From: a virus
DNA: 64,000 nt
Reading direction: 5' to 3' (one strand)
IMG/VR virus record: IMGVR_UViG_3300045988_058553
Coordinates: 119,095-183,094 of that record
Made by a program: the position numbers and the translations under genes. Of this stretch, positions 12,624 to 47,914 are shown one piece after another. The notes under the pieces are model-generated. The model did no database searches and was not told where the DNA came from. It was given only the letters and a program-made list of their open reading frames with translations. Each line of letters opens with the position of its first letter. The first letter of the stretch is position 1.

Positions 12624-13433
12624 TTATTTACAAACGTCTATTACAGTTAAGTTCTCGTTGCTGGGACGATAATTAATATCCCTATGAGAATTAGATACAA
12701 TAACCTGGTCAAAATTATTACACATATTAATCAGACCTTTATTATTAACTGCGTGACATACGATTATGATAAACTTGCTATTTGGATATCTCTCTTTGAG
12801 AACCTTAAGCTCTCCTAGGAAAGTTCCTCCGGCATCACACAAGTCATCAATGAACACAAATGTAGAATAGTAGCAATTCTTAGACTCCTCTATTTCAAAG
12901 GACTCAATTCTTCCAGTCTCTAGATTTCTTTCCTTTTTGAAGACTAAATAACCATAGTGAGAATAGTTACTTCCATATCTGTCCTTCGCCCCATGGTCTG
13001 GGAACACGATATTACTTTGGGCTGGAATCCAAGAGTGGTGTCCAAATTCCCAAGGTAAACATCTGTCACCAAGAAGATGAAAAGTTCTACTAGAATGTGC
13101 CTCAAGAACATATATGTTTCTATAGCCTAAGCTATTTAACATATTACATACTACTTTCAAGGAGAATGGACGATTAAAACTCATTACTCTATCCATACGC
13201 ATAGACATTAAATAAGTAATGTGTAAATCCCATTCTACTTCTTGTCTATCTAAAATATCTCCTACTTGCATTAAGAGGAATAAATCCTCAGTATTAGATA
13301 TTCTACAAATGACATCAATAGATTCCTTTCTGTTTAATTCCTCAGTAAGGAAAAACTGAGGCTCTCCATCAGGAAATCTAGTAACATCGTACTTAATTTC
13401 ACTGATTTCCTTGTTGATTAAGTTTAATTTCAT
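12624..13433 (-). CDS. ribose-phosphate pyrophosphokinase (Prs)-family protein; candidate ADPR-PP synthetase (Adps-like)
   Basis: Prs flexible-loop-like RFPDGE. YLMSMRMDR resembles Prs YFGYARQDR. PRPP-binding PRTase motif FVFIDDLCDAGGT. Confidence 0.5.
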   Translation of the reverse strand: MKLNLINKEISEIKYDVTRFPDGEPQFFLTEELNRKESIDVICRISNTEDLFLLMQVGDILDRQEVEWDLHITYLMSMRMDRVMSFNRPFSLKVVCNMLNSLGYRNIYVLEAHSSRTFHLLGDRCLPWEFGHHSWIPAQSNIVFPDHGAKDRYGSNYSHYGYLVFKKERNLETGRIESFEIEESKNCYYSTFVFIDDLCDAGGTFLGELKVLKERYPNSKFIIIVCHAVNNKGLINMCNNFDQVIVSNSHRDINYRPSNENLTVIDVCK

Positions 13434-13854
13434 CTACTACATATTTTAAGATTTCATAACTTTCTTCCAGACCTGCCCTATCATCTAGGAGGATATTATA
13501 ATAGGGTTTCTCAGAATTAGGAAATACAGGACTTTCATTTGTATATAGCTCAAAGTCTTCATCCAGACCTAATAATTTAGCAGTTTTCATCTGTTTAATA
13601 CATAGCTCTTGAAGATTTGTTTCACAGGTAAACAATATCAAATGAAATCCCAATTTATAACACTTATTAAGTAAATTTATGACTTCACTATAATCTCCTC
13701 CATTATTATGGTAATCGAAAATAGTATTATCAAAATCGAAAGCGACTATTAGCTTTCCGTATTTATGATACTCTTCTAATAGTCGTTTCTTGCAAGCTTC
13801 TTTCCCAAAAGGATGATTAAAGTCCACGGTCAATTCTTTGTCTGATTTCTTCAA
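13399..13854 (-). CDS. HAD-like phosphatase
   Basis: FDFDNTIFDY (DxDxT). Lies between the Prs-like and NAMPT-like genes. Confidence 0.4.
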   Translation of the reverse strand: MKKSDKELTVDFNHPFGKEACKKRLLEEYHKYGKLIVAFDFDNTIFDYHNNGGDYSEVINLLNKCYKLGFHLILFTCETNLQELCIKQMKTAKLLGLDEDFELYTNESPVFPNSEKPYYNILLDDRAGLEESYEILKYVVDEIKLNQQGNQ

Positions 13855-15367
13855 GAGAATATTCTTTCTTCAAGATACCATCTTCAAAGACAGTCTCTAA
13901 GCATCCCTCTTTTTCCTCCTCGATTGAGACCTGGTCGGTAGCAGTATACTTCCCATCCAGACATTTATAGACAGCAATCAAACCTTTCAAAGAGTTCTTA
14001 GTACCATCATCAGTTTTAGGATGTTTGAAGATTTCTTTCAATTCGCCATTTACTACGCAAGCAGTAGCCTTAATAGCAAACCCAAGACTATCTCTACTTG
14101 CATACTGATAGGAATATGAACCTACTCCCAGAACGAGATTACAAGCCGCCATATGAGCGTTTTCTAATCTCAAGTAGATTTGCTTTTGACGTTCCAGAGT
14201 AATAGAATCTCCATAAAGCAGACCAACCTTAGTGCTAGGATAACGGTAATCCTTTGAAGTAGTATTCCATCCGAAGATTTTACCAAGCATATAATATGCC
14301 CCATAATATTGACCTTCGGACACTTCAACATACTCTGCATCGTCGTTAAACGGAGCATAGCAGCAATAATACTTACCTTCTTTCATTCTGGTATTGAAGT
14401 GAGGATTAGTTCTCAACCCGCAGATTATATCTACTGGGTCTCCACTATCAGGACGGATTACTACTCTACCATCACGAGCCATAATGTCTTTCTTCAGCTT
14501 GGGCAAGAAATTTTCAATTACATTCCAGAAATCCCAAGTATCAGATACAATAGAAACAAACCCAGAAGGATACAAATCATTAATTAGACGTTTGAAAGTG
14601 CCCAGCTCATCTTCCTCCCCTCCAGCACACATTACAGAGTGTTCTGTTGCTGGAACTGTAGCAGCAATCAATTCCTCGTCTGAATTAGCTCCATAATATT
14701 CTTCCAAAGCAGCAATAGCTGGAATAGTTTCACTTCCCACAAAAGAAGTCATATGCGCCATACCAGATATAATTGCGGCTTCCATTCCCGCCATACCTCG
14801 CATTGAGAAATCATGACAACAAAAACCAAGATTTACATCTGTTGGAAAACCAGTCTTACAAGCATGACGATGTAGCTCTTTCTTATAAAGCCTAGCTCTA
14901 GTAGCAGATGTGCACGGCATCCACAAGGTACAGCTGATAATAGTCTCTAAGTAGTTAGTTAACCAAAAGAACTCGGGTAGGGTATTTGTAATGGTCATCA
15001 TGGGAACCCGAATAGGGCACACAGAACCTTCAGGAAGAGCCTTTATGCGAATTGGTAGATACCCAAGGTCATATAAAGCTTCAATATGTCTGTACCCAAC
15101 GGATTCAATACCAACAAAGTTGTTTACTCTACGATAGAACATCTCCACAGCTTCCTTCTTTGGTAAATTAAAGAAGTTTTTCTCAAACTGTTTAATGAGA
15201 TATTCTTTGATTAGGTATTGAATACCAAATACTACTGAACCTTCGGTTGCTTCTGGGAAGTATTTATTACTTCTAGGAGTCCAGTTACTATAAACTTGTT
15301 CAGTACCTTCGGGATACATTCTGTGATGGCCCAATTTGTAACCATCTGTAGCATTAATTATTTCCAT
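13817..15367 (-). CDS. nadV: nicotinamide phosphoribosyltransferase family protein (NadV/NAMPT or Namat-like)
   Basis: 516 aa, N-terminal DGYKLGHH motif typical of the NAMPT family. Length and overall sequence fit NadV. Confidence 0.6.
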   Translation of the reverse strand: MEIINATDGYKLGHHRMYPEGTEQVYSNWTPRSNKYFPEATEGSVVFGIQYLIKEYLIKQFEKNFFNLPKKEAVEMFYRRVNNFVGIESVGYRHIEALYDLGYLPIRIKALPEGSVCPIRVPMMTITNTLPEFFWLTNYLETIISCTLWMPCTSATRARLYKKELHRHACKTGFPTDVNLGFCCHDFSMRGMAGMEAAIISGMAHMTSFVGSETIPAIAALEEYYGANSDEELIAATVPATEHSVMCAGGEEDELGTFKRLINDLYPSGFVSIVSDTWDFWNVIENFLPKLKKDIMARDGRVVIRPDSGDPVDIICGLRTNPHFNTRMKEGKYYCCYAPFNDDAEYVEVSEGQYYGAYYMLGKIFGWNTTSKDYRYPSTKVGLLYGDSITLERQKQIYLRLENAHMAACNLVLGVGSYSYQYASRDSLGFAIKATACVVNGELKEIFKHPKTDDGTKNSLKGLIAVYKCLDGKYTATDQVSIEEEKEGCLETVFEDGILKKEYSLEEIRQRIDRGL

Positions 15368-31402: not shown

Positions 31403-31840
31403 CTAATTGTTATTATAATTGTGAAGTTGCATATGACAGTTAGAGCAAACTATCATCAGATTATCCAACTTATTATTATAATGATTATTATCCTTGTGAT
31501 GTAATTCTAAAGGAATTTTCATTCCCATCCACTCTGATAATCCACAACGCTCACACTTATCTTCTTTATATCCATCCTCTATCAATCTTATCCTCTTTCT
31601 AGAATTAGAAATATTAGGATTTCCTATCAGGTCTAAAGCATCTTTTCTCTTTGGGTCTAGTCTTTTTCCCCTAGAGCCTTGATTTCCCTTATACTCTATT
31701 CCCATCTTAATATAATAGGATTTTAGAGTATCGACCTTGCAGTTTAGTCTTCTAGCTATCTCAGCATTAGACTCGTTTTCTGAAATCCATTGTCGGATTT
31801 CCTATTCTCTTTCTAAAATGTCGATTCTTGCCTTTGCCAT
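31403..31840 (-). CDS. HNH homing endonuclease with N-terminal HTH-like extension through TAG
   Basis: CSNCHMQLH motif. With TAG read as sense, the N-terminus extends to MAKARIDILERE-Q-EIRQWISENESNAEIARRLNCKVDTLKSYY (sigma-r4/LuxR-like HTH). Confidence 0.4.
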
Positions 31841-32338: not shown

Positions 32339-32755
32339 TTATACTACTTTAAGATGGCAATAAATACTAAATTCTGGAATTGGAATCCAAGTTGCAATAC
32401 CATTGCTATCTACTGGTTTACCCTTGTTGATTGTACAAATAGTGATATGAGGTTTAGCATTTGCACAAGGCAGATATTGGTCTCCCAATTCTACTCCAAA
32501 AGCTATTGCTTTCTCAGAAATCCCTATTTTGTTTACAATTAATCGAAAATTACCATCTATACGATATTGTAGGTCATTAGCCATCTTTTCTTCATGTTGA
32601 TTTTTATGGAGAAGAGTGCAATGATCTAAATAAATAGTACTTCCTCTTTGGAACACCAGATTGCAAATGATGGGATTTCCAATGATAACTTGCATAAGTT
32701 TGTTTCTAGTTGGTTCATCTAAGAACAATCCAAAATACTGATAATTCATACTCAA
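32339..32755 (-). CDS. hypothetical protein
   Basis: 138-aa ORF. Confidence 0.4.
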   Translation of the reverse strand: MSMNYQYFGLFLDEPTRNKLMQVIIGNPIICNLVFQRGSTIYLDHCTLLHKNQHEEKMANDLQYRIDGNFRLIVNKIGISEKAIAFGVELGDQYLPCANAKPHITICTINKGKPVDSNGIATWIPIPEFSIYCHLKVV

Positions 32756-32770
32756 AAATTTAAATATTTG

Positions 32771-32843
32771 TTGGGAGTGCCAGATTCGAACTGACGACCT
32801 CTGGGCTATGCACCCAGCGAGCTGACCACTGCTCTAACTCCCA
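32771..32843 (-). tRNA. tRNA-Met/Ile2(CAT)
   Basis: Perfect acceptor TGGGAGT/ACTCCCA, anticodon arm CTGGG-TGCATAG-CCCAG, T arm GTCAG-TTCGAAT-CTGGC. Confidence 0.6.
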
Positions 32844-32905
32844 TAGATTAATACATTGTCCTAGGCTATACCAATCTATACTATCTATCTTCCGATAAAC
32901 AGATG

Positions 32906-32950
32906 TGGACCTAGAGGGCTTTGAACCCCCGACCTTCTGATTATGAGTCT
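32906..32950 (-). pseudogene. tRNA 3'-half (CAT-type anticodon loop, acceptor TAGGTCC) abutting the HNH gene
   Basis: GACTCATAA-TCAGA-AGGTC-GGGGG-TTCAAAG-CCCTC-TAGGTCC-A. The HNH ORF's TAA stop lies inside the CTCATAA loop. Confidence 0.45.
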
Positions 32951-33537
32951 TTCTTTCTTATTCCTTGAATAACTCTGCGAGTTAATCCAAAATACTGCGC
33001 AACTTTCTCCCAATTCTTAAGTATTTCGTACTGCTCATTTACTTCTTCTAGAGAGGGATAATGTTTATCAGCATCTCTGCATTCCTTAGAACAGTATATC
33101 TTACCCTTAGATTTAGGAAATCTTTTGCCGCATACTGGGCATACAGACCCAGTCATATTTTCAAAAGACGTCTTATCTTTAGCTTCAGTATTAACTAAAT
33201 CTTCAACTTCGTCCATTCCCAAGTGAGGATTATGTACTTCTCTATGACAATTAGCGCATAGAAGTTGACATTTATCTGCTTCCTCTTTAAGCCTTTCTAG
33301 ACTTGTATTAGATAAATGTCTCATATCTAACTGAAACTCTTTCTCATCTGGATTGATATGGTGAAATTCTAGAACAGCTATGTTTCTATCATAGCCACAT
33401 AGTTCACATTTACCACCACGAGATTTTACCAGCTCTAATTTGCGCTTTAAACCTCTTAACTTCTGTGTATTATAATCATTGTAATTCATATACAAATATA
33501 TATGAAAATAATCATAATACCAAATGTTTTGGTGCAA
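32941..33537 (-). CDS. HNH homing endonuclease flanked by tRNA halves
   Basis: CANCHREVHNPH motif plus C-terminal CPVCGK...C zinc ribbon. Bounded by a 12-bp inverted repeat T(G/A)ATTATGAGTC at 32,938-32,950 and 33,644-33,655. Confidence 0.55.
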   Translation of the reverse strand: MHQNIWYYDYFHIYLYMNYNDYNTQKLRGLKRKLELVKSRGGKCELCGYDRNIAVLEFHHINPDEKEFQLDMRHLSNTSLERLKEEADKCQLLCANCHREVHNPHLGMDEVEDLVNTEAKDKTSFENMTGSVCPVCGKRFPKSKGKIYCSKECRDADKHYPSLEEVNEQYEILKNWEKVAQYFGLTRRVIQGIRKKDS

Positions 33538-33657
33538 AATTAAAAATTCAATCCAGAAGTTGTAGGGACGGTGGGGTTTGAACCCACGTGCGACCGACTA
33601 CCCTTTCTACAAGGTATAAGCTTGAGGGGATACGTCCCTATCTGACTCATAATTAGT

Positions 33658-33685
33658 TGCTCTGACCGGACTGAGCTATAGGTCC
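33658..33685 (-). pseudogene. tRNA 5'-half (acceptor GGACCTA + D arm) upstream of the HNH gene
   Basis: GGACCTA-TA-GCTC-AGTCCGGTCA-GAGC-A is a clean acceptor 5' strand and D arm. GGACCTA pairs perfectly with the TAGGTCC of the fragment at 32,906. Confidence 0.45.
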
Positions 33686-33691
33686 TAAATA

Positions 33692-33901
33692 TTATTCGTA
33701 TGCACTTATTGATTTGCATTCAAATATTACCGTCTCCCCTAGAACATCGCTTGGTTTTATATTAAACTTAGCAAATTCTAGCATCAACTTTTCCATTTCT
33801 TCTACAGAATGGGTTTCTCCTATGATACTTTTTCTATCTATAGAAGTTTGAAAATTGGCAAACAATTCTGTAACTAAACAACTATTAATTATTACTCTCA
33901 T
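33692..33901 (-). CDS. hypothetical protein
   Basis: 69-aa ORF. Confidence 0.35.
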   Translation of the reverse strand: MRVIINSCLVTELFANFQTSIDRKSIIGETHSVEEMEKLMLEFAKFNIKPSDVLGETVIFECKSISAYE

Positions 33902-34057
33902 TTCTTACTATTATTTGTTCTTCTGGTTTTAACTTTTCTGCTGCATCAGAGTGTAGCTTACCACACCTAACACACCAACAAACTCCGAATGAATTTTCTC
34001 GAACTTTACATTTACCTTTGTCACAAAACTTGACAACCTTTCTATAATCTTCTGGCT

Positions 34058-47767: not shown

Positions 47768-47914
47768 AGTCAAAATGGAAATTAATAAAATAAGCAAAGG
47801 GTAACGACTAGACCTTCCTGTGCCACAATACTTTGAGTTATTTCACAACAACTGCATAGTCTCAGGGCATACCCATTATGGTCCGACAATAATATGAATA
47901 CTGCAACTTAGTAG

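Follow-up and report, generated by a model that had tools for sequence, protein, structure and literature searches.

The sequence considered here is a stretch of 64,000 nucleotides of DNA from a gut phage (positions 119,095 to 183,094 of the IMG/VR virus record IMGVR_UViG_3300045988_058553), called the window in the following. On its minus strand, a transfer RNA gene with the anticodon CAU, tRNA(CAU), contains an insert of 705 nt (window 32950-33654) that separates canonical position 29 from position 30 and carries an HNH endonuclease gene and a 77-nt tRNA-like element (TLE). As judged from sequence comparison, a phage tRNA-Ile2-like (CAU) gene has probably been broken by a free-standing homing cassette that supplies its own decoder of AUA codons, and the insert would not be an intron. 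The main parts of the locus are the following.

33655..33685, minus strand: 5' tRNA segment, canonical positions 1-29 (5' strand of the acceptor stem, D arm and the anticodon-stem bases ACT)
32950..33654, minus strand: mobile insert of 705 nt, with breakpoints taken from the comparison with MT838061.1
33641..33657, minus strand: inverted copy of the anticodon arm, ACTAATTATGAGTCAGA, matching the arm at 14 of 17 positions by the authors' own count
33563..33639, minus strand: TLE, a 77-nt gene resembling a non-canonical tRNA-Ile(UAU), scored at 95 bits by a covariance model
32941..33489, minus strand: open reading frame (ORF) of an HNH homing endonuclease of 182 amino acids (PHROG 2255/3106 HNH, E 5e-26; Pfam HNH match weak)
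32906..32949, minus strand: 3' tRNA segment, positions 30-73, the same as in the intact allele of L001

Interrupted and uninterrupted tRNA(CAU) genes

Read along the minus strand, the locus consists of GGACCTATAGCTCAGTCCGGTCAGAGCA ACT (33685-33655), AATTATGAGTCAGAT, the TLE (33639-33563), an AT-rich leader, the endonuclease ORF, which closes with ...AAA GAC TCA TAA, and TCAGAAGGTCGGGGGTTCAAAGCCCTCTAGGTCCA (to 32906). The final codons GAC TCA TAA are at the same time tRNA positions 30-38, and the TAA stop stands inside the anticodon loop CTCATAA, as an earlier note on this DNA had observed. The 3' segment contains GA, this loop, the 3' stem strand, the variable loop, the T arm, the 3' strand of the acceptor stem and a discriminator A. 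Its acceptor strand TAGGTCC pairs with GGACCTA of the 5' segment, again in agreement with the earlier note. That note had placed the end of the 5' half after position 26, had considered it devoid of a matching anticodon-stem strand and had held that a simple intron could not be reconstructed. These three points need to be corrected: collinearity with the intact allele reaches 33655, canonical position 29; the stem bases ACT (27-29) are present; and joining 33655 to 32949 gives ...GAGCA ACTGA CTCATAA TCAGA..., the cloverleaf of which is the relative's intact tRNA except for G27A. The same single change distinguishes the 5' segment from the intact tRNA at L001:2383-2458. Of the 21 tRNA genes that ARAGORN detected in the window, 20 lie on the minus strand; the program made no call at the split locus and found no tRNA-Ile anywhere in the 64 kb.

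An uninterrupted allele has been found in MT838061.1, a phage fragment of human faecal origin. In a BLAST search against phage records, a 1201-nt query aligned to it in two pieces covering 496 bases with 99.2% identity, and its tRNA(CAU) gene reads GGACCTATAGCTCAGTCCGGTCAGAGCAGCTGACTCATAATCAGAAGGTCGGGGGTTCAAAGCCCTCTAGGTCCA without a break. Base by base, the window and MT838061.1 differ within the tRNA by G27A and the 705-nt insertion, the flanks being identical at 212/215 and 205/205 positions. The uninterrupted allele is also present in 38 IMG/VR phage contigs, so the comparison with endonuclease-free relatives to which the earlier note had pointed yields intact genes. About 13 IMG/VR or ENA contigs (~65-280 kb) carry the same insert, with HNH proteins 96-99% identical. 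The insert-bearing tRNA(CAU) genes differ from one another in the 5' half (GGGCCTAT.., GGACCTAT.., GGGCCTGT.., GGGCCTCT..) and stand in unrelated genomic surroundings. The insert is thus present or absent at one site among near-identical genomes, the pattern of free-standing homing, and it has spread into diverged tRNA alleles.

The tRNA halves of the relatives are often mosaic or decayed. In L022, positions 27-31 are ACTGA, as in the donor, and positions 39-43 are TGTCA, as in the resident gene, five intact relatives having GGACA at 27-31. L023 and L336 have kept GGAC on the left side and carry TCAGT and TCAGG, respectively, on the right. Acceptor pairs 6 and 7 are mismatched in L334, the 5' strand of the anticodon stem is absent in L338, and L028 has lost one strand of the T stem. 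A deletion in L026 has removed the C-terminus of the HNH protein together with the 3' half. In L009, the TLE is not directly followed by the HNH gene or by a 3' half, the remaining locus not having been searched for a 3' half, and in L024 and L025 no matching 5' half was seen in the ~2.5 kb searched upstream. The mosaic halves of L015, L022, L023, L334 and L336 indicate co-conversion of flanking markers, and the mismatched or lost halves correspond to what co-conversion and decay would predict, not to what would be predicted for a maintained spliced gene.

The endonuclease gene itself is intact. As listed by the ORF program it spans 32941-33537 and begins at TTG; the ATG at 33489 is the likely start. 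The protein has an HNH/zinc-finger core, a CxxC...C zinc ribbon and a C-terminal tail resembling a helix-turn-helix (HTH), with the full CxxC/HH/N/CxxCH motif set. The ORF is under strong purifying selection, with a ratio of nonsynonymous to synonymous differences (pN/pS) of 0.04-0.19, 49 of 65 variable sites in third codon positions and no stop in 10 copies.

The split tRNA is probably the lysidine-dependent AUA decoder of the phage, tRNA-Ile2 (CAU). The pairing of GGACCTA with TAGGTCC gives C4:G69 and C5:G68, the acceptor pairs by which TilS of E. coli tells tRNA-Ile2 from tRNA-Met (PMC11947777), and the anticodon loop is CTCATAA. The identity is given as probable because the rule comes from E. 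coli and the TilS of the host may follow another.

In the mechanism proposed, the cassette (32950-33654) would consist of the remnant of an inverted anticodon arm, the TLE, the leader and an HNH gene ending in the loop of the 3' fragment. During mixed infection, the HNH enzyme would cut the intact anticodon-arm DNA of tRNA(CAU) in phages without the cassette. Recombinational repair would then copy the cassette in, the two tRNA halves acting as homology arms, and neighbouring tRNA sequence would be co-converted with it. The split tRNA would not be rebuilt, and the reading of AUA would pass to the TLE, which with its UAU anticodon would need no lysidine.

The cassette has its closest known counterparts among the free-standing homing endonucleases of T-even phages, such as SegB in the tRNA cluster of T4 and the insertions splitting nrdA (mobE, Aeh1) or gene 43 (PMC2988022). 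They share with the present cassette an HNH-type endonuclease gene without intron or intein, presence or absence at one site, co-conversion of flanks, location in a tRNA cluster (T4 segB between tRNA-Arg and tRNA-Ile) and the division of a host gene in two. In contrast to those systems, the split gene here is a tRNA gene, whose pieces cannot reassemble as protein subunits do; the element carries a substitute for the destroyed function, and its ORF ends in the anticodon loop of the target.

Homing endonuclease genes usually spare their host through self-splicing introns, inteins or intergenic sites. A third strategy appears to be used here, in which the element breaks the target gene and carries the replacement, which would explain its persistence through lineages whose endonucleases are 55-73% identical.

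The tRNA-like element and its relatives

The earlier note had described a tRNA-like T-arm and acceptor element between the tRNA halves. This element is real and occupies 33563-33639. Exactly one TLE occurs in the window, and ordinary tRNAs of the window score below 19 bits with the model that gives the TLE its 95 bits. The fold comprises, in order, a 7-bp acceptor stem, U8-A9-U, a 3-bp helix around a 4-bp stem, a UNGAAA bulge, the segment UA-R-YYGGU...CA-Y and a standard T arm. The anticodon loop of 7 nt (CUUAUAC in the window copy) is carried by the 4-bp stem and not by one of 5 bp, and the discriminator is A. There is no D hairpin; a linker resembling both a D loop and a variable loop follows on the 3' side of the anticodon arm. 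Among 58 aligned sequences, 97.3% of the alignment cells are paired and double changes are found at 18 of 20 pairs. The covariation score of 0.789 compares with 0.19 when columns are shuffled and with 0.12-0.15 in slid controls. The core of stem 2 was fixed by the search pattern, so its conservation is uninformative, and its register was set by ACC/GGT and CCG/CGG variants. Several tRNA features are present and covary in this alignment: the 7-bp acceptor, the 5-bp T stem, the TTCRANN loop, the 7-nt anticodon loop with U33/R37 and the discriminator. U8 is conserved, the R and the last Y covary like 15:48, and an invariant A and GG stand at the analogues of A14 and G18G19. From this conservation, the TLE keeps the signatures of a tRNA core, with a different connectivity of its strands.

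Standard programs pass over the element. ARAGORN made no call on it with default tRNA or mitochondrial settings, and the folds offered at relaxed thresholds were rejected as not credible, for they take flanking bases as acceptor stem. The only Rfam match was a weak one to the tRNA-like domain of tmRNA (23 bits, below the gathering score of 47), RF00005 not being returned; an origin as a tmRNA fragment was rejected, the match being confined to the acceptor and T-arm part. An element about 80% identical to the window TLE lies unannotated in more than 80 Streptomyces phages. One record, that of phage EGole in GenBank, labels it tRNA-Leu, a label that does not hold, as the loop CUGAUAA gives GAU and not UAA. 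The core pattern was found in at least 120 IMG/VR contigs and, among 185,579 species genomes, in 13 contigs only, all of them metagenome-assembled. The family thus appears restricted to phages and essentially unannotated. No account of the TLE was found in Rfam 15, and none of the TLE or of an HNH-split tRNA-Ile in the literature searched, the coverage of which was incomplete.

The nearest structural analogues are mitochondrial tRNAs without a D arm, e.g., mt-tRNA-Ser(AGY) (PMC7609411, PMC4394434). Like these, the TLE has no D hairpin, and its acceptor, extended anticodon arm and T arm meet in a three-way junction. Unlike them, it occurs in phages of bacteria, its T loop has stayed canonical, a D-loop-like segment with GG comes after the anticodon arm, and an R:Y pair covaries in the manner of 15:48. 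According to a 2024 paper, all known bacterial tRNAs are cloverleaves (PMC11551756). In its build, the TLE family, with its 120 or more viral contigs, differs from all bacterial tRNAs described to date, and yet it bears the marks of an Ile isoacceptor.

These marks come in part from the anticodons. Among 92 distinct TLE sequences, the anticodon is UAU in 77 and GAU in 15, never with C or A at position 34, and the discriminator is A in 91. Among the matches listed, 79 of 120 TLE copies lie within 300 nt of an ordinary tRNA, all on the same strand. In clusters with a TLE(UAU), a canonical Ile(GAU) is present 17 times, and a separate canonical Ile(UAU) is never convincingly seen, the lone UAU call being a dubious 90-nt prediction in L054. 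Conversely, a canonical Ile(UAU) accompanies the TLE(GAU) in three of four clusters (Fisher p 0.003, or 0.01 when the L054 call is counted). The phages of L048 and L115 each hold one UAU and one GAU TLE. In the long ORFs of the window, AUA makes up 27.5% of the Ile codons. With the covariance model, all interrupted alleles proved to contain a TLE and the 343 kb surrounding the 38 intact ones yielded none, so the TLE is cargo of the insert. It behaves like a tRNA-Ile in these comparisons, from which we infer aminoacylation and decoding.

Three further RNAs score at 34-39 bits with the TLE model, receive no ARAGORN call and are apparently without a D arm (L034:4073-4147, L088:5487-5565 and L157:7210-7286). 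Two of them carry other anticodons, CTTCTAA (UCU, Arg) and CTTCGAA (UCG, Arg), and one is a divergent GAU type. In view of the Arg-type anticodons, the fold may extend beyond Ile.

Other decoders are found in cassettes of the same architecture. Among at least 555 HNH relatives gathered from viral and metagenome contigs, the order [5' half]-[decoder]-HNH-[3' half], or a partial version of it, is seen repeatedly. The decoders identified are as follows, with the identity of the HNH protein to that of the window in brackets.

TLE(UAU): group A cassettes; L334 (73%); L336 (66%)
Complete tRNA(CAU) with C4:G69 and C5:G68: L023 (65%); L338 and L339 (55%)
Canonical tRNA-Ile(UAU): L024, L025 and L337 (56-57%); L335 (66%)

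In L029, L084, L343, L346 and L348, a TLE stands beside the HNH gene and the complete pair of halves is missing. In L110 (HNH about 50% identical, over the N-terminal 118 residues only), another tRNA(CAU) is split at about 28/29, with a TLE(GAU) 400 nt upstream. These recurring layouts tie the HNH lineage to genes of AUA-decoding tRNAs. The anticodon arm of the carried decoder repeatedly differs from the presumed target nCTGA CTCATAA TCAGn.

A wider reading can be advanced tentatively, its chances being somewhat short of even. The TLE would be a translationally active, non-cloverleaf elongator tRNA-Ile of many phages, and the HNH family a homing lineage on genes of AUA-decoding tRNAs that compensates its hosts with a substitute immune to cleavage. 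As part of the same tentative proposal, the core of the TLE would be rewired, with the anticodon hairpin closing a helix that resembles the D stem and the D-loop-like segment lying on the side of the variable loop. If the TLE decodes, the assumption that bacterial translation takes only cloverleaf tRNAs would be relaxed, the tRNA complements of phages would have been under-counted, and a natural scaffold for tRNA engineering would be available.

Two related loci have a different layout. In L102 (230-380), a tRNA 5' half, GGACTTTTAGCTCAGTTGGTTAGAGA, is followed after 6 nt by a TLE, and visual inspection of the ~1.1 kb after it revealed no matching 3' half; the genome is probably recoded, because ORFs downstream contain in-frame TAG codons. 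In L350 (1260-1900), a complete tRNA(CAU) and an HNH gene are followed by a duplicate of the tRNA 3' half and the sequence after it, i.e., a direct repeat and not a split gene. A viral scan for ancestors without cargo, using the pattern AGAGCAN{3,8}TTATGAGT, was swamped by chance matches and yielded nothing new.

The inverted anticodon arm and alternative explanations

The inverted repeat that the earlier note had reported at the borders of the unit is present, with arms of 13 nt (32937-32949 and 33644-33656) that are 92% complementary. The first three bases of the inverted copy, ACT (33655-33657), are shared with the 5' tRNA segment, and its core ATTATGAGTC is complementary to GACTCATAAT at the start of the 3' segment. 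This 10-mer occurs twice in the window, once per strand and once per junction, where 0.25 occurrences would be expected by chance. Further inverted repeats of 10-11 nt exist within the same 900 nt, and therefore the placement of the repeat is notable and not its length. In group B cassettes, the start codon of the HNH gene lies within (C/T)TATGAGT, the complement of the ORF end ACTCATA, and so the ancestral ORF probably ran from within an inverted loop copy (TTATGAG) to the loop CTCATAA itself. Group A cassettes now have the TLE and the leader between the relic of the inverted arm and the HNH ORF.

A mini-precursor is predicted to fold as a cloverleaf with acceptor, D and T arms and an extended anticodon helix of 12 bp, which includes the HNH stop codon. 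The helix is continuous in the prediction: pairs 28-29/41-42 are followed by one A.C mismatch and then by 10 bp between the 5' end of the insert and positions 30-39. Its pairing is retained through wobble changes in L016 and L020 and by a double change in L334 (TTATGAAT/ATTCATAA as compared with TTATGAGT/ACTCATAA in the window). The retained pairing may stem from a function at the RNA level, from concerted evolution of an inverted repeat in DNA or from a repair scar. At the RNA level, the helix could sequester the start site when transcripts read through, or could give the message a scaffold in the shape of a tRNA.

Several observations weigh against the homing cassette. The retained pairing between the insert and the 3' exon hints at a function of the helix that the homing model does not contain. 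Both halves are perfect in the window, and simple excision would give a good tRNA. The layout of 5' half, AUA decoder, HNH gene and 3' half persists across HNH proteins that are 55-73% identical, so that the halves could matter. The TLE has no normal D arm and is rejected by ARAGORN and by the Rfam tRNA model, so that its use in translation is putative. Moreover, the specificity of the HNH enzyme for the intact tRNA gene and the split tRNA staying unjoined, in a region that is not a recognisable intron, are both deduced from sequence.

It is unlikely, and would be compatible with homing, that the halves and the closing helix form a natural tRNA scaffold for the HNH message and the TLE. Such a scaffold would serve processing by RNase P/Z, protection of the ends or silencing of endonuclease translation in read-through transcripts. 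The predicted cloverleaf, with the HNH stop inside its closing helix, is what this explanation would ask for, and the complementarity of start and end of the ORF in group B fits it as well. Sequestration of the start site in read-through transcripts is a known control of T4 homing endonucleases (PMC2988022). A run of 13 nt, TTATGAGTCAGAT, is identical in the window and L020 at a proportion of synonymous differences (pS) of 0.32, which has P ~0.007 at the synonymous rate; however, the entire non-coding leader is conserved to the same degree, so the conservation is not specific to the inverted arm. L336 is without the inverted arm, which counts against a required role for it, and in many lineages a half has been lost or the stems do not match.

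Next in probability, and improbable, is that the locus is the wreckage of a gene. A dispensable tRNA would have been knocked out, and the TLE would have some role other than decoding, such as signalling the processing of the HNH transcript or acting as a decoy against host defences that target tRNAs. Phage tRNA genes are often dispensable, standard tRNA finders do not accept the TLE, and an HNH gene of this family lies within 1.8 kb in 42 of 137 contexts of the TLE scan. A signal or decoy would not, however, lead one to expect anticodons limited to UAU and GAU in a U33/R37 loop, a discriminator A, or the conservation of U8 and of the analogues of A14, R15:Y48 and G18G19. Nor would it account for the complementary anticodons of the TLE and the canonical tRNA-Ile in one cluster, for L048 and L115 with both types of TLE, or for the ordinary tRNA-Ile(UAU) or tRNA(CAU) that fills the same slot in relatives.

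The least probable alternative, and a very doubtful one, is an intron of a new and probably protein-dependent type, in which a cloverleaf precursor would lose 705 nt and the halves would be ligated to a functional tRNA-Ile2: excision at 33655|32949 restores the tRNA except for G27A, the 10-bp helix of insert and 3' exon would lengthen the anticodon stem and is kept in L016, L020 and L334, and L110, L338 and L336 again have halves that match, at least in the acceptor stem, but the joined products of L022, L023, L334, L336 and L338 would have a mismatched anticodon stem, a missing 5' strand or a mismatched acceptor, and a half is missing from view in L024 and L025 (5', within the stretch searched) and lost in L026 (3').

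The known classes of intron do not fit either. With cmscan over 32600-34000 on both strands, no Rfam intron family was returned at E<=10, the core model RF00028 included. For group I, the 5' exon ends in U (33655) as it should, but the insert ends in ...AAGAAA (32950) without a terminal G, and inspection of the insert revealed no internal guide complementary to GCAACU. For group II, GUGYG...AY ends, a domain V and a reverse transcriptase or maturase would be expected; the insert begins with AAUUAUG, and its ORF encodes an HNH protein and not a reverse transcriptase. Since the non-coding part of the insert is made up of the TLE and the leader, there is no space for a ribozyme core. A group I or II intron has therefore been rejected on account of the Rfam result and the unfit ends. 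Splicing of the bulge-helix-bulge (BHB) or split-tRNA kind, which calls for two 3-nt bulges and a 4-bp helix, has been rejected as well, because the geometry is wrong: a continuous helix carries both junctions, at a distance of 11 bp from each other.

Rejoining by RNA repair encoded in the phage was likewise rejected, as a scan of 33 window ORFs revealed neither an RNA ligase nor a kinase. A 2H phosphoesterase ORF is present at 32339-32755 (minus strand), about 150 nt downstream of the split tRNA, with two HxT motifs and a domain resembling that of tRNA ligases (Pfam tRNA_lig_CPD, E 2e-7, above the curated cut-off), which would favour an intron; it begins about 15 nt downstream of the neighbouring tRNA(CAU) at 32770-32843, but it also adjoins the intact allele in MT838061.1. 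The earlier note had offered two explanations, an endonuclease gene inserted into a CAT-type tRNA or a non-canonical intron. The former is supported by the empty site, the 38 intact contigs, the evidence of spread and the inverted copy of the anticodon arm at the left end of the insert. The latter is not supported, with no group I or II core, no BHB and halves that are incompatible or missing in many relatives.

Group I introns are known from bacterial tRNAs, including Azoarcus tRNA-Ile(CAU), cyanobacterial tRNA-Leu and tRNA-fMet, and tRNAs of Patescibacteria (PMC13168695, PMC13011429). The interruption of the anticodon arm of a tRNA(CAU), the possible homing endonuclease and the existence of intron-less alleles are common to both. 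In contrast, the present insert has no ribozyme core or omega-G, its site is in the anticodon stem (29/30) and not in the loop, and its non-coding part is an independent tRNA-like gene.

Archaeal split and BHB-intron tRNA genes of the Nanoarchaeum equitans type have two halves with complementarity adjacent to the break. Here too, two tRNA halves are found, with complementary sequence by the break that would be able to join them; however, 705 nt separate them in the genome of a bacterial phage, the insert is complementary to the 3' exon itself, and no BHB is formed. To our knowledge, no splicing endonuclease has been described for split tRNAs in bacterial phages.

Candidate expression signals and neighbouring genes

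Two further features stand at the start of the HNH gene.

33493..33524, minus strand: candidate promoter of the Bacteroidota type, TTTG-N20-TATATTTG, 5' of the HNH ATG and the sole match in the window
33467-33520, minus strand: imperfect 25-nt hairpin, 76% complementary, with a 4-nt loop, covering the HNH start codon and overlapping the candidate promoter

The promoter is kept as a weak candidate because 1.07 matches would be expected in the window by chance; a similar motif stands at the same place in L024. The hairpin resembles those that sequester the start sites of T4 homing endonuclease genes. The HNH homologues of L024 (2501-3031) and L025 (2501-3019) have an in-frame stop after about 155 codons, and similarity runs on to the C-terminal HTH region, so that either a recoded stop or a decaying gene may be considered. 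A second, unrelated short HNH ORF of 100 amino acids (31403-31705, minus strand) is located in the same tRNA cluster.

The neighbouring tRNA(CAU) at 32770-32843 (minus strand) has the loop TGCATAG, with G33 replacing the nearly universal U, and the same is found in MT838061.1. The window also contains tRNAs of the ochre and amber suppressor types, with anticodons UUA (47914-47984, minus strand) and CUA (51273-51345, plus strand), which suggests stop-codon recoding in part of the phage genome. Such recoding has been reported for other gut phages. Farther away, the ORF at 13817-15367 (minus strand) encodes a homologue of nicotinamide/nicotinate phosphoribosyltransferase (Pfam NAPRTase, E 3e-32) and adjoins a weak PRTase-CE match at 12624-13433 (minus strand); the two may be phage-borne genes of NAD salvage.

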